A stretch of 64,000 nucleotides of DNA from Candidatus Hydrothermarchaeum profundi (GCA_002011125.2 MTMF02000009.1:1734788-1798787), one strand, 5' to 3'. Shown: positions 2,001 through 62,355, counted from the first letter of the stretch. Made by a program: numbers and translations. Notes: generated by a model not told the origin, from the sequence alone.

Positions 2001-3779
2001 ATGATTAATCCAATCAGCCTTTTTCCATATAAAGAAGCCAGACCATTTCAAGATGAATTAATACAAAGGATATATTCAGCTGATAAGATACTGTGTAATG
2101 CCCCAACGGGCGTTGGAAAATCAATAAGCGCTCTATGTGGTTTTTTAGCCGAGCGAGATAGAGATGAGAAGATCGTTATCTTAACTAGGACTAAGTCGCA
2201 AGCTAAAATATTTCTTCAGGAAATCGCTAAGATCTCTCAACATTCTGGACAAAAATACCTAGCCATCCAGCTTCGTTCAAAGCAGGAACTCTGCCCATTC
2301 TACAGGGAAAACGAAACAACATATGAAGAATTCATAGAACTCTGTAAAGCTACATTAGAATGCCCTTATAGGGAGAAATTCTTTGATAACTGGGGTACCG
2401 TCGAAACTTTAGCTGAAGAGATTTCTAGTACTCGACTATATGCAGACTACTCCAACCTCCTACCCCTCCTTAGAAGTAGGGGCTGCCCCTATTTAGTATT
2501 ACAGGAACTTTCCTCCTTGGCCGATGTACTAGTAACATCTTACCTCTATCTCTTAAATCCCTTTTTGAGGAGAATTTTCCTCAATAGAATACAAAAGGAA
2601 ATAGAGGACCTCTTGATTATTATTGATGAAGCCCATAACCTCCACAGCATGGACATCTTGGGGAAAACCCTTAGCCGCCATACGTTGGATATGGCCGCGA
2701 AAGAAATTGATTATGATTTTTCAAGTATCTATTTTATATTTGATGGAAAAGACGACATATTGGAGGTCGAGGATTATTTAGATCACTCTGAAGTAGCATA
2801 CCTCCTAGATAAGGGTAGAGAAGTACTTCGTAGCAGGTTGAAACAGGACAAGAAGGTTTCTTATACCTTCAGGGTAGCTTCCTTTTTTAAGCATGCACTG
2901 GAGTATAGCATGGAGGGGAATTGGATGTTTTTTAGAAAAGAAGGAAAACTCTATATTAAGCCTCTTTTTCCAAACGAGTTCATCGAACCTCTCAGAAATT
3001 CAAGGAAGCTTTTGATGATGAGCGGAACATTAGAACCTCTTGAAGGATTTAAGTTGCTATATGGCCTAGAGGATGCAGAAGACGTATCTCTACCTAAGAT
3101 ATTTCCAAAAGAAAACTCCTACTACCTAGGAGTAAAGGGAATCAACACTGCTCAGACGACAAGGGAAAATAGAGGCGAAGAACTCTGGAAAGACTACGCA
3201 GGAGTAATACAAAGGATATCTAACGCATCTCCCATGACAACTCTTGTTTTTTTCCCTTCATATGACATAATGTATGCGGTGGCCAAGTATCTCAACGAGG
3301 TAGGACTAGAGCCGGCAGATAGCGCACAGGCAGAGGACTTCTGGAAACAAGTTGTAGACAAGGGACAAAAAAAGGTTTTCGCTGTGTCTGGTGGAAAATT
3401 TAGCGAGGGAGTCGAGTTCACTATTAATAAAGGTAACGAGAAGAAGAGCGTGATAAGCACCTTAATTATTGCAGGCTTTCCATTTCCTGTGCCCGACTTC
3501 GAGCTTGAGATTAAAAGCAAGTTCTACGAAGAGAGGTTTGGATATGGCAGAGCGTTTTTATTGTTATCGGTTTTGCCCATGGTAAACAAGGTTCTTCAAG
3601 CTATTGGCAGAGCGGTAAGAAGTGAGAATGATAGAGCTGCTATTGTTCTCTTGGATGATAGATTAGAATATCTGAAGTATTTTCCAGAAAGCATTAGCAA
3701 CGAAATTCAAATATGCGAGATGGATGAACTCGCAGATGAAGTTGCATGGTTTCATAGTAGGTTAAAAGGAGGTTTCTAA
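2001..3779 (+). CDS. XPD/Rad3/DinG-family Fe-S DNA helicase
   Basis: APTGVGKS, DEAH, Fe-S cysteines (LCP...LC...ECPY...GCPY), SGTL, FFPSY, QAIGRAVR. Confidence 0.9.
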   Translation: MINPISLFPYKEARPFQDELIQRIYSADKILCNAPTGVGKSISALCGFLAERDRDEKIVILTRTKSQAKIFLQEIAKISQHSGQKYLAIQLRSKQELCPFYRENETTYEEFIELCKATLECPYREKFFDNWGTVETLAEEISSTRLYADYSNLLPLLRSRGCPYLVLQELSSLADVLVTSYLYLLNPFLRRIFLNRIQKEIEDLLIIIDEAHNLHSMDILGKTLSRHTLDMAAKEIDYDFSSIYFIFDGKDDILEVEDYLDHSEVAYLLDKGREVLRSRLKQDKKVSYTFRVASFFKHALEYSMEGNWMFFRKEGKLYIKPLFPNEFIEPLRNSRKLLMMSGTLEPLEGFKLLYGLEDAEDVSLPKIFPKENSYYLGVKGINTAQTTRENRGEELWKDYAGVIQRISNASPMTTLVFFPSYDIMYAVAKYLNEVGLEPADSAQAEDFWKQVVDKGQKKVFAVSGGKFSEGVEFTINKGNEKKSVISTLIIAGFPFPVPDFELEIKSKFYEERFGYGRAFLLLSVLPMVNKVLQAIGRAVRSENDRAAIVLLDDRLEYLKYFPESISNEIQICEMDELADEVAWFHSRLKGGF

Positions 3780-6112: not shown

Positions 6113-6291
6113 TTATCTACCTCCAATTTAACTGGCTCCTAATTCTCAAAAATAGTTATATATAAAGTTAATGTGCAAATATAGTACAACAATGTACTCT
6201 TTTTATCAATGAAAGTGCATTTTTCTTCATCAATCTTTCAACAATTGAGAAGTTCTGCCATTTAACAACCAACTATAGCGAATTCCCAAAA

Positions 6292-9773: not shown

Positions 9774-10232
9774 TCACTTCTGCACGTCAGCAACTTTTAT
9801 TTCGAAGATCAGCGTCTTCCCGGCTAAGGGATGATTAAAATCTAATACAACTTCATCCGCAGATACTTTAGTTATAACCGCTTGACCCTGTGGGGTTCTC
9901 ACGATCATACCTACTTCTGGCTGAATTTCGCTCTGCTCGAAGACCTGTATTGGAAAGTTCTGAACAAGATCTGGATAAACTTCACCATAGGCCTTTTCTG
10001 GGGGAAGGGTGACTTTCTTTTCTTCACCTACTTCCATGCCCTTTAAAGACTCTTCAATCCCAGGTATTATCTCGCCTGCTCCGACTCTCACTGTGATGGG
10101 CTCATAAACCCTCTCTTCGTTATAGATTCCTGCCTTCTTTGCAACCTCTTCATCTGAAGTATCGAAAACTTCTCCATTCTCGTATTTCCCTGTGTACTCT
10201 AATTTCACTATACTTCCCTCTTCAACTTTCAT
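9774..10232 (-). CDS. slyD: FKBP-type peptidyl-prolyl isomerase (SlyD-like)
   Basis: YTGK..GEVFDTS, IIPGIEE, PPEKAYG, DFNHPLAGKTL. Confidence 0.93.
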   Translation of the reverse strand: MKVEEGSIVKLEYTGKYENGEVFDTSDEEVAKKAGIYNEERVYEPITVRVGAGEIIPGIEESLKGMEVGEEKKVTLPPEKAYGEVYPDLVQNFPIQVFEQSEIQPEVGMIVRTPQGQAVITKVSADEVVLDFNHPLAGKTLIFEIKVADVQK

Positions 10233-10663
10233 ATTTTATTCACCTCATTTTTATATAAGATTCTTGAAAGAATCCGCATTAGAAAAGAAGACCCACTGAA
10301 TGGATATTCAAAAACTTTTTTACTTAAATAATTGATAATTTGATCCTGATTCTCCACATTAACTGGGAGGGGCCCATCATAAACATCTTCTTCAAAAGCA
10401 GTTAAATGAGTAACTTTCATTGGCTATTGCTTCCTCTCCCGATTATTTCTAAATGAAGACAGAACTTCCCTGAAGCATCTAGAAACTTCTTCTAGGAAAT
10501 CAAGCTGCCCCAGTTTTCCCTCCCGGTAAAATAAGGGAAAAATTTCTTGAAGTTCTTTCATATTAGGAAGCGGCAAAATAATACTATATAAGCGTTACGG
10601 TGAGATATGAGATTTTCTTTAGGGAAATCCAAATAATGCTGAGCTTTTTTTCTTTTACAAAAT

Positions 10664-11692
10664 TTAGTGTGTGAAGAGATGAGCTTTAGGTATTAGTTGC
10701 GAGTACTCATAATAGCTTACTTCAGAATACCAATGTCCAGAGATTTTTGCGATAGCTAGAACTGAGAAGAACAGTACAGTAAGAAAGATACCAAACAAAA
10801 TAGGCGAAAGCTTTTCCTGAGAAGGCCATATATGGAGTGCATTGGAAGGGCAATTTTCTATACACTTAAAGCATTTAATACATTCTTGCGAGCTTACTTT
10901 ACTCTGTGACTCTACCTTGATGTAGCTTGGGCAGACCTTTGAGCACTTTGAACAGGAAGTACATTTCTCGCTCTCTCTCACTATCTTAAGAGGACTAAAT
11001 ATCCCTACTACCCCTAGAAGAGCTCCATAAGGGCAGAGATACCTGCACCAAAAATTATGGATGAAGAGAGATGCTATAACTAATAGGCATGTAACTAATA
11101 TTGTGAGAGTGCCAGGCTGAATCCAGAAATCCAGCATTTTAACATCTACCACCTTGTTATAAGGAGAGTTAATAAAGGCGTAGGCTGTGGTACCAGACAT
11201 ATCAATTAAGACAGCTTTTATAAAAAAAGCCAAAATTAAATATTTTATTGACCTTAAAGGATAGTCCAGAAGCTGGGGAACCAAGAGCTTCTTACCGCTT
11301 ATTTTTTTCCCTATGCCTCCTAAAAACTCTGAGAGGGCTCCTATAGGACATAGCCAAGAACAGAAGCCTCTTGCAAAGAATGATGCAGATAGAAGAGCGG
11401 CAAGGAAAATAGCGAGTCCAGCAGGATGCACTGTATCATATAGCCCTGTAGATATCCAGCTTTTAAGACCTACAAGAGCGCTGATAGGGAGAAACGCCTC
11501 TATAGCTGGGGGTCTTGATACATAGGCGGTTCCATCTCTGAAATGTGAAACGAAAAGATAGAATTGCCAGCCCTCGTAAACGAGGATCGTTACAATAGTC
11601 AGTTGTATCGTATTACGTAGCTTTTGAGAATTTTTTGAGCCATAAAGATATTTATTTATATGCTTATACACCAAATCATACACTATACCCAC
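10664..11692 (-). CDS. Membrane polyferredoxin, NapH/MauN-like 4Fe-4S protein
   Basis: FCSWLCP and WCRYLCP motifs, two CxxCxxCxxxCP motifs, several TM helices. Confidence 0.85.
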   Translation of the reverse strand: MGIVYDLVYKHINKYLYGSKNSQKLRNTIQLTIVTILVYEGWQFYLFVSHFRDGTAYVSRPPAIEAFLPISALVGLKSWISTGLYDTVHPAGLAIFLAALLSASFFARGFCSWLCPIGALSEFLGGIGKKISGKKLLVPQLLDYPLRSIKYLILAFFIKAVLIDMSGTTAYAFINSPYNKVVDVKMLDFWIQPGTLTILVTCLLVIASLFIHNFWCRYLCPYGALLGVVGIFSPLKIVRESEKCTSCSKCSKVCPSYIKVESQSKVSSQECIKCFKCIENCPSNALHIWPSQEKLSPILFGIFLTVLFFSVLAIAKISGHWYSEVSYYEYSQLIPKAHLFTH

Positions 11693-11912
11693 GTCCTATA
11701 TGACGCTTTAAATTATTTGAAAATTAATTATAAAAAATTTATTATTATAAAATATAACTTTTAATGGAATTTTACTTTAATTATAAAGGTATAATACCTA
11801 TATTAAATTGGACAATATAATCAAGAAAAAATGACAATTATTAAAAGCACTCTACCCAAAAAATAGCAAAACTGGAAAAATGTTTCAAACGCCAAATAAA
11901 ATTGCAGTATTG

Positions 11913-11950
11913 ATGCAGGGAAGGGATATCAGCATGAATTTACCAGTAAA
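11913..11950 (-). repeat. Degenerate copy of the tRNA-Leu 3' end plus TTTACCAGTAAA motif (att-like site A)
   Basis: atgca-gggaagggat versus atgcgggggaagggat at the tRNA end (14948); followed by a 12-bp near-palindrome. Confidence 0.6.
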
Positions 11951-11953
11951 GTC

Positions 11954-12343
11954 CTACCATGTCGTCTTAACGTATCCGCTCTTTATTATCTCCTCATCTT
12001 TGGTGATCAGAGATGCGTTGATCCTCTGGGCTGTGGCAACTATTATCTTATCATGAATTTCACTTAATTTGTCGAGTTTTAATGTCATTCTGACGGTTTC
12101 GATATCAAGGGGATAGGGCGGGAAGTTTATCGAGTTCTCTACCATATCCAGGAGTTCGTCAAACTTCAATTTGAAGTTCTTCTTCACAGATATGTAGCTT
12201 GACTCTGCCAGAACAATCGTCGGGACGACTATTACAGCATCTCCTTTCTCTGCCCTCTCATAAACCTTCTTCGCCTCTTCGCCAAGTTGCTTGTCGTCGG
12301 TTAAAAACCAGAGAAAAGGATGGGTATCTGTTACAAAGACCAT
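11954..12343 (-). CDS. vapC: PIN-domain toxin (VapC)
   Basis: VTDTHPFLW, PTIVLAE, HDKIIVATA, LITKD acidic PIN residues. Confidence 0.9.
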   Translation of the reverse strand: MVFVTDTHPFLWFLTDDKQLGEEAKKVYERAEKGDAVIVVPTIVLAESSYISVKKNFKLKFDELLDMVENSINFPPYPLDIETVRMTLKLDKLSEIHDKIIVATAQRINASLITKDEEIIKSGYVKTTW

Positions 12344-12535
12344 TTAAGCACCTGATTTAAAAAGGGATTTTTTGGCCTCTTCTACGTCCTCATCCCCGAT
12401 TTCAATTCCCTTCAAGGCACCCTTCAGAGAAACCACTTTTTTTGTTTGGAATCCCTTGCTTAAGCTGAGCTTCAGAAAGTCTAAATCCCTTTGAATCATG
12501 TCTACCTTCTTAGCCAGCTTTTTTATTTCATCCAT
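12344..12535 (-). CDS. Cognate antitoxin
   Basis: Small ORF abutting vapC; C-terminal 'SLKGALKG.....EDVEEAKKSLF'; start taken at MDEIKK. Confidence 0.75.
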   Translation of the reverse strand: MDEIKKLAKKVDMIQRDLDFLKLSLSKGFQTKKVVSLKGALKGIEIGDEDVEEAKKSLFKSGA

Positions 12536-12727
12536 AACAGACACCCTATACACAAATTCTTCCATATTTCACGATAAAAAAGTTTCCTCTTCTGGATTTA
12601 AGTAGATCACTATTCGTAGAGTTTAAATCACCACCTAAAATTCTTATTTATTTTTTACCAGCAAACATGGGCTTCGAATTTCAAAAATCTTGAAAAAGAT
12701 GAGAAAACCGTCTCTGTAAATTAGTAA

Positions 12728-12766
12728 ATGCGGGGGAAGGAATATCAATGCAGATCTACTGGTAAA
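12728..12766 (-). repeat. Exact 13-bp copy of the tRNA-Leu 3' end plus TCTACTGGTAAA motif (att-like site B)
   Basis: atgcgggggaagg is identical to 14948-14960; the downstream 26 nt align with site A. Confidence 0.75.
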
Positions 12767-12934
12767 TCCTCTAACCTTTATCTACCGTTTTAGTCCCTAT
12801 TTTTCCATTTCAACTTAAATAGTTTTCCAAAACATGGCCGTGGTTAACATGCAGTTGATCAAACTTAATGCCGGGTCCCAGAGAATCTGCTAACCAAAAG
12901 CATTTTCAGATGGAACCGCGCTTATAGGGAATCG

Positions 12935-13864
12935 CTATTTTGATCTAAATAATGCATGGTACAGCGAGGGATGTTTCTGGGCTTTTTTGTTGTATTTTAT
13001 ACCTCCGAACAGAACATCTAGGTCAATAACACCTCTACCTATCAATTCTAAAAATTTCTGATCACTATCATCAAGCTTAAAAACGTCTTCATAAAACTCT
13101 ACAACACCTCTCTTTATTAACGCAGCATCCAATACTTGACTCTGGGTTGTAAATTGACCTATCTTCCGGACAACCTCTCCATCGTCGTATCTCTTGATCT
13201 TAGATACTAAACCTTCAATCTCTGGCTTCTTCCCAGCTATCAGCATATACAGGATCATCAGCTTTCTAAGTATCTCCTTCTGTAGCTTCAATTTTGATAG
13301 GTTGTACATGTCGAAGAGGTCTCTGGCGTAAAGCCTTTCTGCCATTGCCTTGCTCTTCATTGCACATATCTCCTCGACGATATAGGTGTTCACTTCAAAT
13401 TCCGGGACATCCTCAAAGAAATGCCTAAAACCTCGTTTAGCCCTCCCCATAAAGGGCACCCTTTCAAGGTAGTTTATCTCCACCTTAATGCTGTCTTGAA
13501 CGCCTTTCAGGGTCTTATATCTTATCAAAAACCTTTCCATGATGTACGAAGGAGGTTTTTTAGTCACTCTGTATCCTAACCTATCAGCAACTCCTACAAT
13601 ACCTTCAGCAATTCGGGGTCTTGCTTTCAGCATTTTCTCCTTTTCCAAAGCGCCAATGAAATTGAGATCCAAGTCTATGGACAGCCTCGGTATATCTAGA
13701 TAGATAAAATTCAGCGCAGTTCCGCCCTTTAGGGCGAGGTTTCTACCAAGTTTCTCATCTTCATAGATCTCAAAAAGCATATTGGTGATGTGATAGGCCT
13801 TCTCTATAAAATCAACGTTAAAGCCAGTGCCCCTTTGTAACCTTTGAAGCGCCCTTAGATCCAT
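12935..13864 (-). CDS. AbiEii/AbiGii nucleotidyltransferase toxin (type IV TA)
   Basis: IEKAY, LKGGTALN, RLSIDLDL, IKVEIN, EICAMK, ARDLFD. Confidence 0.9.
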   Translation of the reverse strand: MDLRALQRLQRGTGFNVDFIEKAYHITNMLFEIYEDEKLGRNLALKGGTALNFIYLDIPRLSIDLDLNFIGALEKEKMLKARPRIAEGIVGVADRLGYRVTKKPPSYIMERFLIRYKTLKGVQDSIKVEINYLERVPFMGRAKRGFRHFFEDVPEFEVNTYIVEEICAMKSKAMAERLYARDLFDMYNLSKLKLQKEILRKLMILYMLIAGKKPEIEGLVSKIKRYDDGEVVRKIGQFTTQSQVLDAALIKRGVVEFYEDVFKLDDSDQKFLELIGRGVIDLDVLFGGIKYNKKAQKHPSLYHALFRSK

Positions 13865-14674
13865 TTAAACGCCTTCCACTACCTTTTCCAGCCCTGGATC
13901 TACGATGATCTTCCACCGCTTATTAAACTTCCCCTTCTTATTTACCTCAAAATAGTATACATTTCCAGAAAGCATGCCTTCGAGTTTTTCAAGAAACGAG
14001 CTGGGGGGATTTGCCTGTTCTTTTAACAGTTCAAAAATATAGCCAAGACGGTTTATGAGGATCTTCTCCCCCATCCTTTTTGCATACCCTATCAACTTAT
14101 TCCAATCCACATCTTCAACATCCATGAGGCATCGCAGCACCTCTTCGTAGCCTCCAGCGTACTCCGCCCTATCTATCACATCTACTATGGTCCGCTCTAG
14201 ATCGGAGACCACTACTTCTCCCTTTTCATACCCCTTCCTCTCAAATCCAAAAAAACGTTGTTGGGTTAAGATGATTGGCCGGATTACATTTCCATGATAC
14301 TCTATCTTAGATACGTGCTTTGTCGTAGATAAATAATAATTCCGAGTAACCTGCTGTGCAAGGCCGTGTAAAGCCAAAGCGGTGTAATAGGAAAAGAAAT
14401 AGGGCTTAACGATGTGCTCTGCCACCAGGATGGGATCTTCCACATATTCCCCTTTATCATGAACTATATGTGCCGGTATGCGGACATAGAGGTTGGACTT
14501 GACCTTGTCTAGTGCACCTTTCTTGTGCATGCTCTTTAGGAGGTTATATGCGTGCATCTTCGAGATATCAAGCAGGTCCATAGCGAGCTCCGCATTAACG
14601 ATGCGCTTATCCTCGGCCTCAAGCATGAAATACAATTTTTGCTCCAGTCCGGAGAGTTTTCTTAATTTGTACAT
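13865..14674 (-). CDS. AbiEi antitoxin / transcriptional regulator
   Basis: N-terminal wHTH, YFFSYYTALALHGL, VSDLERTIVD, RLGYIFE; abuts abiEii. Confidence 0.88.
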   Translation of the reverse strand: MYKLRKLSGLEQKLYFMLEAEDKRIVNAELAMDLLDISKMHAYNLLKSMHKKGALDKVKSNLYVRIPAHIVHDKGEYVEDPILVAEHIVKPYFFSYYTALALHGLAQQVTRNYYLSTTKHVSKIEYHGNVIRPIILTQQRFFGFERKGYEKGEVVVSDLERTIVDVIDRAEYAGGYEEVLRCLMDVEDVDWNKLIGYAKRMGEKILINRLGYIFELLKEQANPPSSFLEKLEGMLSGNVYYFEVNKKGKFNKRWKIIVDPGLEKVVEGV

Positions 14675-14948
14675 GCTATTTAATTTGTTTTCAAATATTT
14701 AAATATTTTGATTAAAAATATGAAAATAGATTAAATAACTTAATGGAAAACACGTCTATTTATTCTATCTTCTTACTGGTTTCAATCAATAAAATAGACC
14801 AAAAACTGATATAAAGTCATCCCAAAAAATGGGACAATCGTCCTTTAATATGAGATATGAAGATTCAATGCTAATTTTTACCAGTAAATTGGTGTTTCAA
14901 ATTATAGAAATGATAGAATTCTGGTATATTGGTCCCGGAATTTTAGTA

Positions 14949-15034
14949 TGCGGGGGAAGGGATTCGAACCCTTGAACCGACTAACGGACAGGACCCTGAA
15001 TCCTGCGCCTTTGACCAGACTTGGCTACCCCCGC
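14949..15034 (-). tRNA. tRNA-Leu(CAG)
   Basis: GCGGGGG acceptor stem, TAGCCAAG D-arm, anticodon arm CAGGA-TT-CAG-GG-TCCTG, long variable arm, GGTTCGAATCC. Confidence 0.95.
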
Positions 15035-15175
15035 ATAGAATCTATATTTTCAATTTCTTATGATAAAAAAGTACCTATTTATCTAAATTTATAGAGGAGA
15101 AAAGGGAGAGAATTGTTGCATACTGAATAAGGAGGCATAAAGTAGATTATTCCCTATACACCGATATTTCGTAGC

Positions 15176-16030
15176 TTAAAGTTCTTTCATAATCTTATAA
15201 ATAACAGAGAAATCGAGGTCCTCCAAATTCCTGGATAGTGTTATGCCATATAGCTCTTTAGCAGTACTCCCTGTGAATAGGGGTTTTTTAAGAAACCTCG
15301 CTAGGTCCTGCAGATAATGAAGATCCTTATAAATTAAGGCAACTTTAAAATGCGTAGAAAAGTCTTCTTTGAGCAGTTTTTCTTTTTTCACATTCAAAAC
15401 CAGAGAGTCACCAGCGCCTTTAGACAGTATATCTAACACTTTCTCCTTTGGCAAGCCTATCTCTTCCCCAAGCACTACTGCCTCGGCAATAGATGCCATA
15501 AAGGAGCCTAAAAGCATGTTATTAATTAGCTTCATTTTTGTCGCCATACCACGTTCTTCAAGATAGAAGATATTGCTCCCAATTTTTTCTAGCAGGGGAA
15601 GACATTTTTCGTATGCCTCTCTTCTACCACTAACCAGCACTGTAAGTAGGCCCTTTGAAGCAGGGATAACACTTCCCAATACTGGTGCCTCAATATACGC
15701 CGCATTCACTTTTTCAAAGGTCTCATGGAAATCCAATACATCCTGAAAATGGTTAGTCGTAGTGTCAATGATTATCTTACCATCACAGTCCCCCTGGAGA
15801 ATCCCTCTTTCTCCTCCTATCACGTCCCTTACTGCATTACTGTCAAAGAGGTTCATGAATAAAACATCCACCTTGGATATTAGAGCAGCAGGCGAATCCA
15901 TCATCTCTACCTTTAAGTCCGCCGCCTTTTCTTTAGTCCTATTCCACACAGATAGCTCTACTCCTTCGGAGATCAATCTCCTAGCCATCGCCTTTCCGAG
16001 ATAGCCTAACCCAATAAATCCTACCTTCAT
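15176..16030 (-). CDS. NAD(P)-dependent oxidoreductase, 3-hydroxyisobutyrate dehydrogenase family
   Basis: GFIGLGYLG, WNRT, EAPVLGS, KLINN, KDL. Confidence 0.9.
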   Translation of the reverse strand: MKVGFIGLGYLGKAMARRLISEGVELSVWNRTKEKAADLKVEMMDSPAALISKVDVLFMNLFDSNAVRDVIGGERGILQGDCDGKIIIDTTTNHFQDVLDFHETFEKVNAAYIEAPVLGSVIPASKGLLTVLVSGRREAYEKCLPLLEKIGSNIFYLEERGMATKMKLINNMLLGSFMASIAEAVVLGEEIGLPKEKVLDILSKGAGDSLVLNVKKEKLLKEDFSTHFKVALIYKDLHYLQDLARFLKKPLFTGSTAKELYGITLSRNLEDLDFSVIYKIMKEL

Positions 16031-16155
16031 ATGACTCCCCTAATCTTATTAGCCTCTAGTAAACTTAAAGCTTGATAACTCAGAGCCTACGATTATCACT
16101 ACTTCTTCCAAAAATTCACCACTATACATAAGATTTTATTTACTTTTAGGTGGAT

Positions 16156-16320
16156 TTATTCCATTCCAACTGGCCCGCCTTCCAAGTATTTCTCTGGGTC
16201 TTCTTCGAACTTCGCCTTACAACTTGGAGCACAGAAGTAGTACATCTTACCTTTATAATATTTGGATATTTTAGCGGTCTTTGGATCAACTTCCATACCG
16301 CATACAGGATCTATTGCCAA
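16156..16320 (-). CDS. YHS/TRASH-domain metal chaperone (54 aa)
   Basis: Hand translation MAIDPVCGMEVDPKTAKISKYYKGKMYYFCAPSCKAKFEEDPEKYLEGGPVGME; SD GGAGGTGA before the TTG; below the ORF-track cutoff. Confidence 0.9.
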   Translation of the reverse strand: MAIDPVCGMEVDPKTAKISKYYKGKMYYFCAPSCKAKFEEDPEKYLEGGPVGME

Positions 16321-16326
16321 AGCTTT

Positions 16327-16647
16327 TCACCTCCTTATTTCTTCAATTACTTTGATTATTTCTTCTTTGCTGGGAAACGCATCCTGCCTCTCTACTTCTT
16401 CTCCAGCTTTAAAATAAATAAGGGTAGGAGTGCTTGTAACTCTATATCTCTGGGCAACCTCTGCGTATTTCGAGATATCAAGCTTGTAGAACAACACATC
16501 CCCAGAATATTCTTCGTATACCTCCATAACTCTAGGAGTAATAGCCCTACATGGAGCACACCCGGGCACCGTGAACCAAACCACCACAGGCTTATCTGCC
16601 TTCAATACTTTCTCATCAAACTCTTGTCCTGTAATAAACTCCGTTAT
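16327..16647 (-). CDS. Thioredoxin (CAPC active site)
   Basis: KPVVVWFTVPGCAPCR, V.STPT. The frame is open upstream of the track start to an ATA at 16647 behind GGAGG, which gives a full-size 106-aa Trx. Confidence 0.85.
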   Translation of the reverse strand: MTEFITGQEFDEKVLKADKPVVVWFTVPGCAPCRAITPRVMEVYEEYSGDVLFYKLDISKYAEVAQRYRVTSTPTLIYFKAGEEVERQDAFPSKEEIIKVIEEIRR

Positions 16648-17267
16648 ATCATCCTCCCATGAAAAAGCTCTTTGGCTACAAAAAGGGCCTCATCTAATGT
16701 CAGGTAAAGTCCTTCGCTGAAATGCTGCTTATCAGAGAACACATTCTTAGAGCACCTTTCCCTCCCAATACAGTCATCATATATTATTTCAATTAGGACC
16801 CAGAGTTCTTCGGGGGAGGAGCTACCTATTTTCCCCTCCTTGACTTCTATTTCTACCTTCTCTTTGCAATAATCGCAACATGACTTAATACCCGCATCTC
16901 TCTCTACCAAAAGAGGCACAGTTAATGAATCCAAGGCAGAGGTGGCAAAAACTCCTCTACCATCATAAAATACCTCGTACTGCGTAGACATAGCTGAAAA
17001 GGGAGAAGCAGCAGTTATTTCCGCCCCCATAAGCGAGATGAACTCAAATTCATTCAACTTACTAAAGCTTTGTATAACATCGAAAAGTCCTATGCTTAAA
17101 GAATCCATTATTTCTTCTTTTTTGGGCGGTTTACCCTCATCTGAAAACTTTTTAAGTATAAAATTAAGTACCTCTAGGTCGACCTTGTTTAGCTCTCGCA
17201 TTTTTTTGTCTAATTCAGTTACTTCCCTGAGTTTTTTAAGAGCTAATTCAGCCTTCTCGGTAGTCAC
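16644..17267 (-). CDS. Organomercurial lyase (MerB)-like protein, atypical active site
   Basis: wHTH-like N-terminus, SPFSAMST..V...GR..FATSALDSL, IKSCCDYCKEKVEI; Ser where MerB has the CALD cysteine. Confidence 0.65.
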   Translation of the reverse strand: MTTEKAELALKKLREVTELDKKMRELNKVDLEVLNFILKKFSDEGKPPKKEEIMDSLSIGLFDVIQSFSKLNEFEFISLMGAEITAASPFSAMSTQYEVFYDGRGVFATSALDSLTVPLLVERDAGIKSCCDYCKEKVEIEVKEGKIGSSSPEELWVLIEIIYDDCIGRERCSKNVFSDKQHFSEGLYLTLDEALFVAKELFHGRMI

Positions 17268-61969: not shown

Positions 61970-62044
61970 GCTCCGGTAGTGTAGACCGGCCAATCATGTG
62001 GGACTCTCACTCCCACGACCGGGGTTCAAATCCCCGCCGGAGCA
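61970..62044 (+). tRNA. tRNA-Glu(CTC)
   Basis: GCTCCGG acceptor stem, TAGTGTAG D-arm, anticodon arm TGGGA-CT-CTC-AC-TCCCA, GGTTCAAATCC. Confidence 0.95.
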
Positions 62045-62106
62045 ATCCTTTGCCACGTCCTAAGCTCCTTGGAATTTATTAGCTTTGAGATAGGAGGCTT
62101 AGGAAC

Positions 62107-62355
62107 GTGGCCGACATCTATAGGAGAGACTTAGAGGAGAAAGCTAAAAACTATATCTCCAAGCTCCCAGCCGAAGATAGAGAAGACATGAGAGGATTCT
62201 ACACCGACCTCACGGCAAGAGGCTACAGCCCGAGCAGAGTTGACAAATACATGGCCTCCTTGGTCAGTATAGGCCGGAGGTTGGGATCCTTTAAGAAAGC
62301 TAGGAGGGAGGACGTTAAACGCTATGTAGCCTGTCCGGAGAGGTCTGGCAGATAA
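62107..62355 (+). pseudogene. Truncated tyrosine integrase (N-terminal SAM-like domain only)
   Basis: 'F..DL.ARGYS.SRV.KY...L......F..A.REDV..YV' typical of archaeal integrase N-termini; stops at 82 aa; 62 nt after tRNA-Glu. Confidence 0.65.

Follow-up and report, generated by a model that had tools for sequence, protein, structure and literature searches.

The window analysed here is a 64,000-nt stretch of DNA (GCA_002011125.2 MTMF02000009.1:1734788-1798787) from Candidatus Hydrothermarchaeum profundi, an uncultured archaeon whose genome assembly (G000) comprises 2.19 Mb and is 97.65% complete. Behind the 3' end of its tRNA-Leu(CAG) gene lie two short intervals in tandem, the nearer occupied by an abiEi/abiEii pair (2.2 kb) and the outer by a vapBC pair (0.8 kb), with all genes on the minus strand, the direction of the tRNA. 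Both intervals are bounded by copies of the tRNA 3' end and by short palindromes (Table 1), and we think it likely that each is a small non-autonomous integrative element, hereafter a cassette, in which a single toxin-antitoxin operon is framed by attachment-site (att) halves and the integrase acts in trans.

Table 1. Features of the tRNA-Leu(CAG) locus, from the tRNA outward, in window coordinates (aa, amino acids; ORF, open reading frame).
Feature	Position	Strand	Details
tRNA-Leu(CAG), integration target	14948..15035	-	ARAGORN; 3' end at 14948-14960 (+ strand) ATGCGGGGGAAGG = repeated core
tRNA-proximal palindrome, abiE cassette	14877..14888		TTTACCAGTAAA; 59 nt from tRNA end
abiEi-like antitoxin/regulator gene, 269 aa	13865..14674	-	PF09407 AbiEi_1, 24.1 bits, cut-off 22.2
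abiEii nucleotidyltransferase toxin gene, 309 aa	12935..13864	-	PF08843 AbiEii, E 4.3e-26, 92.7 bits (above cut-off)
Distal arm, abiE cassette	12728..12766		13-nt exact tRNA-end copy 12728-12740, 14-nt spacer AATATCAATGCAGA, palindrome TCTACTGGTAAA 12755-12766
tRNA-proximal arm, vapBC cassette	12654..12727		Palindrome TTTACCAGCAAA 12654-12665 + 62-nt spacer
Presumed vapB-type antitoxin ORF, 73 aa	12344..12565	-	ORF list; abuts PIN gene upstream
vapC-type PIN-domain toxin gene, 129 aa	11954..12343	-	PF01850 PIN, E 2e-12
Outermost decayed distal arm, vapBC cassette	11913..11950		ATGCAGGGAAGG 11913-11924, 14-nt spacer GATATCAGCATGAA, palindrome TTTACCAGTAAA 11939-11950

The repeated core is a 13-mer, ATGCGGGGGAAGG, the complement of the tRNA 3' end, with an exact second copy at 12728. 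Five exact occurrences exist in the 2.19-Mb genome, four of them at the 3' ends of tRNA-Leu genes and the fifth being this copy. The third copy in the window, ATGCAGGGAAGG at 11913, has one base substituted and one G deleted relative to the 13-mer; a search without gaps that allowed up to two mismatches missed it, and we accept it as real because conserved sequence follows there. The palindrome motif TTTACNNGYAAA is exact at 11939, 12654 and 14877, while the copy at 12755 (TCTACTGGTAAA) has one mismatch. Between repeat and inner palindrome the gap is exactly 14 nt in both cassettes (11925-11938 and 12741-12754), and on the opposite side 59 nt (14889-14947) and 62 nt (12666-12727) separate the palindrome from the tRNA end or its copy. 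A preliminary description of the locus, made from the sequence alone, had claimed an exact tRNA-end copy at 12728 and a degenerate one at 11913, and both the sequence and the 13-mer count bear this out. It had also claimed four symmetrically placed palindromes, of which the positions and the symmetry stand and only the fourth (12755) departs from the motif, and spacings of 14 nt, which is exact, and 60-63 nt, which the measured outer gaps correct. Its motif gives six strand-matches at four positions in the window against 0.42 expected, and none of 100 shuffles reached six. The fourth of these positions, 21689, is unrelated to the cassettes. Genome-wide, TTTACCAGYAAA occurs at six positions, three of them within this 3-kb stretch.

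The gene content of the intervals is as limited as had been described: in Pfam only PIN, AbiEii and AbiEi were matched, and the ORF list holds no further ORF with a family match in either interval. A PIN-domain toxin gene with a small gene upstream is the arrangement of a vapBC type II toxin-antitoxin system; the antitoxin is presumed, since the 73-aa ORF has no match in Pfam or NCBIfam and its vapB-type role is taken from position alone. AbiEii with an adjacent, co-directional upstream AbiEi constitutes an AbiE type IV toxin-antitoxin, or abortive infection, system. As in classical, non-suicidal tRNA-targeting elements, the tRNA is intact and a direct repeat of its 3' end marks the far boundary; an integrase gene inside the element, the remaining hallmark of that class, is lacking here and present in related elements described below. 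The hybrid junction at 12654-12766, where the proximal arm of the vapBC cassette meets the distal arm of the abiE cassette, looks like an attP site, and the stretch 14889-14905 beside the palindrome at 14877 resembles an inverted T-arm. The cassettes do not stand out in base composition.

Sites of the same build were sought throughout G000 in two steps: the four cassette ends were used as short-word BLAST queries, and the sequence downstream of every Leu and Ser tRNA was then scanned for copies of the tRNA end. This genome-wide search, which the preliminary description had proposed as a check, yielded three more tRNA sites. Behind tRNA-Leu(TAA) come a PIN gene and a small ORF and then, at a distance of 807 bp from the tRNA end, TACTGGTAAA, 13 nt and CCCTTCCCCAGCA. 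The cassette at tRNA-Ser(TGA) holds hicB-hicA and ends 662 bp out in TTTACCAGTAAA, 13 nt and a repeat of the Ser tRNA end, beyond which lies a near-identical second proximal arm. At tRNA-Leu(TAG), a DUF4258/DUF2283 pair precedes TTACCAGCAAA, 14 nt and a strongly decayed core. G000 thus has five clear cassettes of 0.66-2.2 kb, each a single toxin-antitoxin-type operon with arms intact or recognisable, and in tRNA orientation all follow one order: tRNA end, 42-62 nt, palindrome, operon, palindrome, 13-14 nt, tRNA-end copy. The 13-14-nt distal spacers have a TGC...TGAT motif in common. In the tRNA-Ser(TGA) array (G000:C9:1423820-1424650; positions 2820-3650 of locus L069) the proximal arm of about 65 nt is duplicated behind hicBA and followed by a gene of the pyridoxamine-5'-phosphate-oxidase family; this unit may be an older, third kind of cassette, and no convincing outer arm was found for it at this tRNA. 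Elsewhere on the same contig (G000:C9:1321583-1321652) is a tRNA-Pyl gene with a CUA anticodon, and the organism therefore probably reads some UAG codons as pyrrolysine.

Beyond G000, the build recurs in a different family of the same order. G000 is the sole member of its genus and its order comprises 35 genomes; when the junction at 12640-12775 was searched in these 35, only G015, which belongs to another family, matched. The hope that relatives would display empty or refilled sites was accordingly disappointed, as no close relatives exist. The G015 matches are 73-84% identical and occur three times on one 3.8-kb contig, on which tRNA-Leu(CAG) precedes a DUF4258/DUF2283 cassette, then a ParE-like pair and then the beginning of a third unit, with the same hybrid junction between them, so that at least two cassettes are stacked at this tRNA. 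The proximal arm and junction of the vapBC cassette are 84% identical over 113 nt to the junction in G015 contig C38. The DUF4258/DUF2283 cassette itself, at tRNA-Leu(TAG) in G000 and at tRNA-Leu(CAG) in G015, is 87.6% identical over 724 columns from the palindrome through the core copy, whereas for the housekeeping genes flanking the locus the best matches anywhere in the order are 65-67% identical and none is in G015.

On a wider scale, the distal-arm pattern was found at 39 loci of a species-genome collection, 26 of them in metagenome-assembled genomes (MAGs) labelled archaeal: 19 Bathyarchaeia, three Hadarchaeota, two Thermoplasmatota, one Methanobacteriota and one unclassified archaeon (the G015 record). 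The 13 bacterial-labelled loci mostly have different internal spacing and look like chance matches, and the pattern was not matched in a viral collection. The Bathyarchaeia loci use the 3' end of an intron-bearing tRNA-Ser as core and have the proximal palindrome directly at the tRNA end; their cassettes measure 1.2-7 kb and are stacked in several cases (arms at 6164 and 8002 with the tRNA at 9327 in L048; arms at 436 and 4357 with the tRNA at 7548 in L067). Some distal arms retain an unaltered T-arm, and the arm therefore consists of the last ~26 nt of the tRNA, three bases and the palindrome. None of 50 cargo ORFs from 15 archaeal distal-arm loci is an integrase; the cargo of these loci comprises toxin-antitoxin pairs, GNAT acetyltransferases, methyltransferases, regulators, radical-SAM enzymes, an ABC transporter and membrane proteins. 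A separate observation concerns G042, a Thermoplasmatales chromosome (L072-L074, L077-L083), which has 25 exact TTTACYRGTAAA sites against none for the reversed control. Many are joined to the T-arm-like GAGTTCAAATCTCG, and they lie in both orientations and often far from tRNAs, as if arm fragments had dispersed like a repeat. The integrases of G042 were considered as the matching recombinase and set aside, as none of the seven matches lies beside a palindrome.

An intact integrase, which the preliminary description had suggested seeking elsewhere, is encoded on G015 contig C98 and in metagenomic relatives. On C98 a tRNA-Gly(CCC) is followed after 4 nt by TTTACCAGTAAA, the sole exact TTTACYRGTAAA in G015, and then by a 177-aa ORF (ORF177) and a gene for a 324-aa tyrosine integrase. 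The best NCBIfam model for the integrase is that of archaeal XerA (NF040815), at 182 bits against a cut-off of 220, and because the best-scoring model stays below threshold we call the protein XerA-like. The database contains 2,162 relatives at E ≤ 1e-10, and the best 120 of these are 52-83% identical to it and about 310-325 aa long, some bearing the names of Archaeoglobus, Methanothrix and Thermofilum. We fetched 80 metagenomic loci that encode such relatives, 354 kb in all. In 48 of them a same-strand tRNA lies 400-900 nt (typically ~600 nt) upstream of the integrase gene, and in most of the others the contig ends at about that distance. With up to two mismatches allowed, 46 of the 48 loci have a palindrome in the 25 nt that follow the tRNA, and 35 of them do with at most one mismatch; it lies 1-5 nt from the tRNA end and is usually followed by TTTAAATA. 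Fourteen more of the 80 loci have a palindrome at the right distance with no called tRNA, and only one other palindrome exists in the whole 354 kb. The target tRNAs of the 48 loci are Leu (28, with all five anticodons), Ala (6), Ser (6), Glu (3) and Met (2), together with His, Tyr and Cys.

Just before the integrase gene, 78 of the 80 loci have a partner gene of ~175-177 aa like ORF177. Its AlphaFold model (mean predicted local distance difference test score, pLDDT, 77; built on 12 sequences) consists of an N-terminus, a long helix and a C-terminal helix-and-strand domain. From sequence and model the N-terminus looks ribbon-helix-helix-like, its strand being disordered in the monomer, and the C-terminal domain is matched, weakly (E ≥ 0.03), by winged-helix proteins alone. 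Foldseek with the ORF177 model gave no match at E ≤ 0.001 and PHROGs gave none for ORF177. The partner is a predicted DNA-binding protein. The integrase has no lambda-type N-terminal arm-binding domain in Pfam, and for that reason the palindrome is more likely to be read by the partner, or to form the outer part of a core or symmetric site, than to be a classical arm-type site. The earlier proposal that the palindromes are arm or accessory sites therefore holds as regards their association with the integrase and loses ground as regards the classical arm type.

The profile of this integrase family matches 16 of 301 sampled Bathyarchaeia genomes, and in two of six long loci fetched from the integrase-bearing ones the far end of the element is visible. 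The first of these complete elements (5.47 kb) ends in TTTACTAGTAAA TTGGTGCGCGAATCC CACTCCCCGCACCA and the other (18.8 kb) in TTTACTAGTAAA TACGGGTTGGTGCCC CACCCCCTGCACCA; both endings consist of a palindrome, 15 nt and a 14-nt tRNA-end copy, which is the build of the distal arms in the window. In the circular form the two palindromes would lie ~30 bp apart around a tRNA-derived core. The cargo of the two elements is heterogeneous and includes transposases, TetR, a TFIIB homologue, a CDC48-like ATPase and a phosphorylase. Neither the 80 metagenome loci, followed for 3 kb, nor three loci from the viral collection, followed for 10 kb, extended to a far end. Judging by these shared sequences, the attachment site of the window cassettes likely belongs to this widespread archaeal family of XerA-like tyrosine integrases of ~320 aa.

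A tblastn search of G000 with the G015 integrase retrieved only a 21%-identical pseudogene of another family, and neither the partner profile nor partner tblastn, which were applied to the G000 genome, found anything there. A six-frame search with the integrase profile across all G000 and G015 cassettes, their flanks and 23 archaeal loci (257 kb) gave a best E-value of 0.42. Elsewhere in the 38 genomes of the phylum the G015-type integrase is absent at E ≤ 1e-20. Among the 301 Bathyarchaeia genomes the tRNA-Ser-type distal arm occurs in 35 (reversed control, none), of which 30 have no integrase match, and the arm is present in five of the 16 genomes with the integrase; since the sampled genomes are incomplete and related to one another, the counts describe the sample rather than constitute a test. 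The integrases that G000 does encode were rejected as candidates, as they belong to other families and their tRNA flanks are without the palindrome. One such family has left a trace in the window itself: at 61970-62355 a tRNA-Glu(CTC) is followed by an 82-aa ORF, an N-terminal integrase fragment that is 55% identical to the start of a 398-aa integrase beside tRNA-Cys (G000:C9, ~157 kb) and 40% identical to a pseudogene beside tRNA-Thr(CGT). The flanks of these three tRNAs have in common a conserved stretch with an inverted repeat of its own, and the 82-aa ORF is a classical integrase remnant, unlike the toxin-antitoxin cassettes.

These results are consistent with the following scheme. A circular cassette would carry an attP-like site made up of a palindrome, ~14 nt of T-arm-like sequence, a tRNA-end copy of ~13 nt, a spacer and a second palindrome. 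Another element, resident in the same cell or newly arriving, would provide the integrase in trans; recombination between this site and the tRNA-Leu(CAG) 3' end would then insert the cassette and leave the tRNA restored. The vapBC cassette would have entered first; the abiE cassette would have followed into the restored tRNA end and displaced vapBC outward, after which the outer att copy of vapBC decayed. Successive entry at a restored tRNA end fits because the copy at 12728 is exact and that at 11913 decayed. The preliminary description had likewise proposed sequential integration of non-autonomous cassettes by one trans-acting tyrosine recombinase, a proposal now supported by an integrase family with the same palindrome (46 of 48 loci) and matching far ends (two of six), and by the lack of an integrase in G000 and of remnants. 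Its view that the older cassette is furthest out with the more decayed att agrees with the decay of the outermost copy, as expected if arrivals insert at the intact tRNA. Direct observation covers the repeats with their spacing, the recurrence of the build at further tRNAs and in further archaeal phyla, the association of the palindrome with this integrase family, and the absence of integrase and remnant; from it we infer the order of events, the supply in trans, the palindrome-binding protein and any remaining mobility.

Several observations weigh against this interpretation. The proximal palindrome lies 42-65 nt from the tRNA end in G000 and G015 but 1-5 nt from it in the integrase-bearing elements, and because of this difference the proximal arm in the window is not simply copied from theirs; what adjoins the core in the G000 and G015 cassettes is no more than a decayed stretch resembling the palindrome. 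The same DUF4258/DUF2283 cassette has a 42-nt spacer in G000 and a 65-nt spacer in G015 that cannot be aligned, while the vapBC cassette of the window and the ParE-like cassette of G015 have a common spacer at 84% identity. The spacer has therefore been exchanged independently of cargo, which a simple crossover at the tRNA core does not predict. In addition, an inverted T-arm-like stretch precedes the intact palindrome, and the cassettes are framed by imperfect inverted repeats of ~28 nt. This behaviour of the spacer would follow if stacked cassettes shuffled their arms or if exchange also took place at a second point close to the palindrome. The integrase-family profile finds nothing in G000, and the outer att copies are decaying, so that the cassettes may no longer be mobile. 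The four other cassette-bearing genomes examined (G041-G044) have no match to the G015-type integrase at E ≤ 1e-8. Most of the sequences are moreover MAGs or metagenome contigs, in which mis-binning is possible. Finally, public sequencing runs, available as contigs only, contain no circular form, empty site, split read or joint that skips a cassette.

Some contigs in these runs do depart from the window in a suggestive way. One X3 contig spans 12991-14551 and shows 19 differences, and another of 4,799 nt from this run matches the window only at 14808-14955 and continues unlike it, so that the proximal arm of the abiE cassette borders on foreign sequence in that contig; these contigs hint at movement of the cassette. 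Runs X3-X5 cover the abiE cassette but not the housekeeping flanks (9852-11839 and 15248-17235), although missing cover proves nothing. Run X2, in which the organism itself is present, has single contigs that agree with the window to the right of 14690, or of the tRNA end at 14947, and have other sequence before it; they may be population variants with other cargo beside the same arm or tRNA. Independently of this, contigs of X3 and X4 (depth ~1,949 and ~1,274) carry, in a different context, a vapB-like gene ~91% identical to window positions 12342-12591; given these depths, a related antitoxin gene belongs to a much more abundant organism or element of those samples.

The cassettes could instead be decay remnants, that is, integrase islands that suffered internal deletion and kept their att ends and a toxin-antitoxin operon whose loss would kill the cell, never having been minimal and now being inert. 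Full-length elements with the same arms exist, G000 is without the integrase, outer att copies have decayed, and the window has the tRNA-Glu fragment as a classical remnant of another integrase family. A route of integration, decay and accretion is moreover described for cis-mobilizable elements (CIMEs; PMC5704250). We nevertheless judge this origin unlikely, although old decay that ran to completion may have left such units. The six-frame profile search over 257 kb gave no trace of the integrase in the cassettes or their flanks, and G000 has no match to the partner; each of the five clear G000 cassettes is one operon whose two arms are intact or still recognisable, and one minimal cassette recurs with its arms, at 87.6% identity, in another family at a different tRNA-Leu isoacceptor gene. 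The proximal arm also differs from that of the integrase elements and is 84% conserved across families, and arm-bearing genomes outnumber integrase-bearing ones (35 against 16 of 301).

A transposon-like mode, in which the ~28-nt imperfect inverted repeats are the ends, strand exchange takes place at or near the palindromes and the tRNA-end copy is a carried flank, would account for the T-arm-like stretch and then palindrome that are read inward from both cassette ends, for the similarity of the two DUF4258/DUF2283 cassettes beginning at the palindrome rather than at the tRNA end, and for the same spacer in cassettes with different cargo. It is improbable in view of the integrase elements, whose proximal palindrome touches the tRNA end and whose direct repeat is the 14-nt tRNA end, as for ordinary tRNA-targeting integrases; there is no transposase in or near the cassettes, and the two central bases of the palindrome vary (CA, TG, TA, CG) with no consistent polarity. 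Very improbable, even taken jointly, are the readings that the palindromes are toxin-antitoxin operators or promoters accompanied by chance tRNA-end copies, or that the locus is a true integron array recombining as folded single strands. The palindrome abuts the TTTAAATA box in integrase-bearing elements and may also act in transcription control, but one palindrome per cassette lies behind the 3' end of the operon, and five unrelated toxin-antitoxin families, besides other kinds of cargo at other loci, are framed by this palindrome; chance copying is at odds with an exact 13-mer found genome-wide only at tRNA-Leu 3' ends and at 12728. In favour of an integron, toxin-antitoxin cassettes are typical integron cargo; against it, single-strand DNA folds of five junctions are no better than shuffles (z = 0.17, -0.05, -1.0, 0.64 and 0.65), and the associated integrase reaches 64 bits with the integron-integrase model TIGR02249, whose cut-off is 265. 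The integron-like character that the preliminary description had seen thus survives as an analogy only.

If the cassettes are indeed moved in trans, toxin-antitoxin and abortive-infection modules would spread as free units of <1 to ~2 kb in uncultured archaea, and a borrowed integrase, if true, would allow such modules to gather at tRNA genes of genomes without a matching integrase. More tentatively, with rather less than even confidence, we envisage a multi-phylum archaeal cassette system, integron-like in its working but different in mechanism, in which a XerA-like integrase and its partner act in trans to insert cassettes at tRNA 3' ends and to excise them again, using palindrome-flanked double-stranded att sites, with arms and cargo being reshuffled among stacked cassettes. 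The pool in that system would be large and made up of minimal cassettes (toxin-antitoxin, defence and small metabolic genes), each with its own upstream region. The system is open to testing, as it offers one integrase family, a conserved partner, a 12-bp palindrome at fixed distances, a tRNA-derived core and natural minimal substrates, and it could serve archaeal genetics and the annotation of integrase-less islands.

Among known systems, integron arrays and integrase-less attC clusters are rows of one- to two-gene cassettes, often toxin-antitoxin, with a recurring recombination site and an integrase that acts in trans. The array in the window differs: it lacks both an IntI-type integrase and an attI, its junctions do not fold as attC hairpins, and a tRNA 3' end serves as its anchor; its cassettes carry their own upstream regions, and newcomers enter at the tRNA. 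The tycheposons of Prochlorococcus are likewise tRNA-anchored islands with partial tRNA copies in which later integrations push older ones outward; they differ in being bacterial, with their own integrase and often replication genes, and their integrase-less material consists of degenerated fragments with unclear boundaries (10.1101/2020.12.28.424599), whereas the boundaries in the window are sharp. Re-use of a tRNA att is known from archaea: sections of two accounts describe tandem arrays of integrated elements at one tRNA att, with loss of the integrase after integration, and mention integrase-less elements (PMC8371274, PMC6563490). Those elements are proviruses, plasmids and casposons of at least several kb, and the same sections contain no minimal toxin-antitoxin family with a palindrome-flanked att and no mention of the present integrase and its partner gene (PMC8371274, PMC6563490). 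As far as our full-text literature searches extended into the texts, no paper describes minimal toxin-antitoxin cassettes of this build, the palindrome or the integrase-partner module, although one may exist elsewhere.

The closest likeness is to the CIMEs related to ICESt1 and ICESt3 of streptococci, which keep attL and attR, have no integrase or transfer genes and are stacked at the 3' end of a target gene through repeated site-specific integration (PMC5704250). The units in the window similarly have the attL and attR of a site-specific integrase family and are without integration, excision or transfer genes. CIMEs are defined there as decayed integrative and conjugative elements (ICEs) or integrative and mobilizable elements (IMEs) and are usually many kb long (PMC5704250), whereas the units of G000 are archaeal single operons of 0.66-2.2 kb without integrase remnants, with an arm build conserved across phyla and one cassette common to two families. 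The array is therefore best read as a variant of known, CIME-like tandem accretion and not as an integron. Tandem accretion at tRNA genes is established, and the present analysis extends it in mechanism and in scope by defining the att build and pointing to a candidate integrase family.

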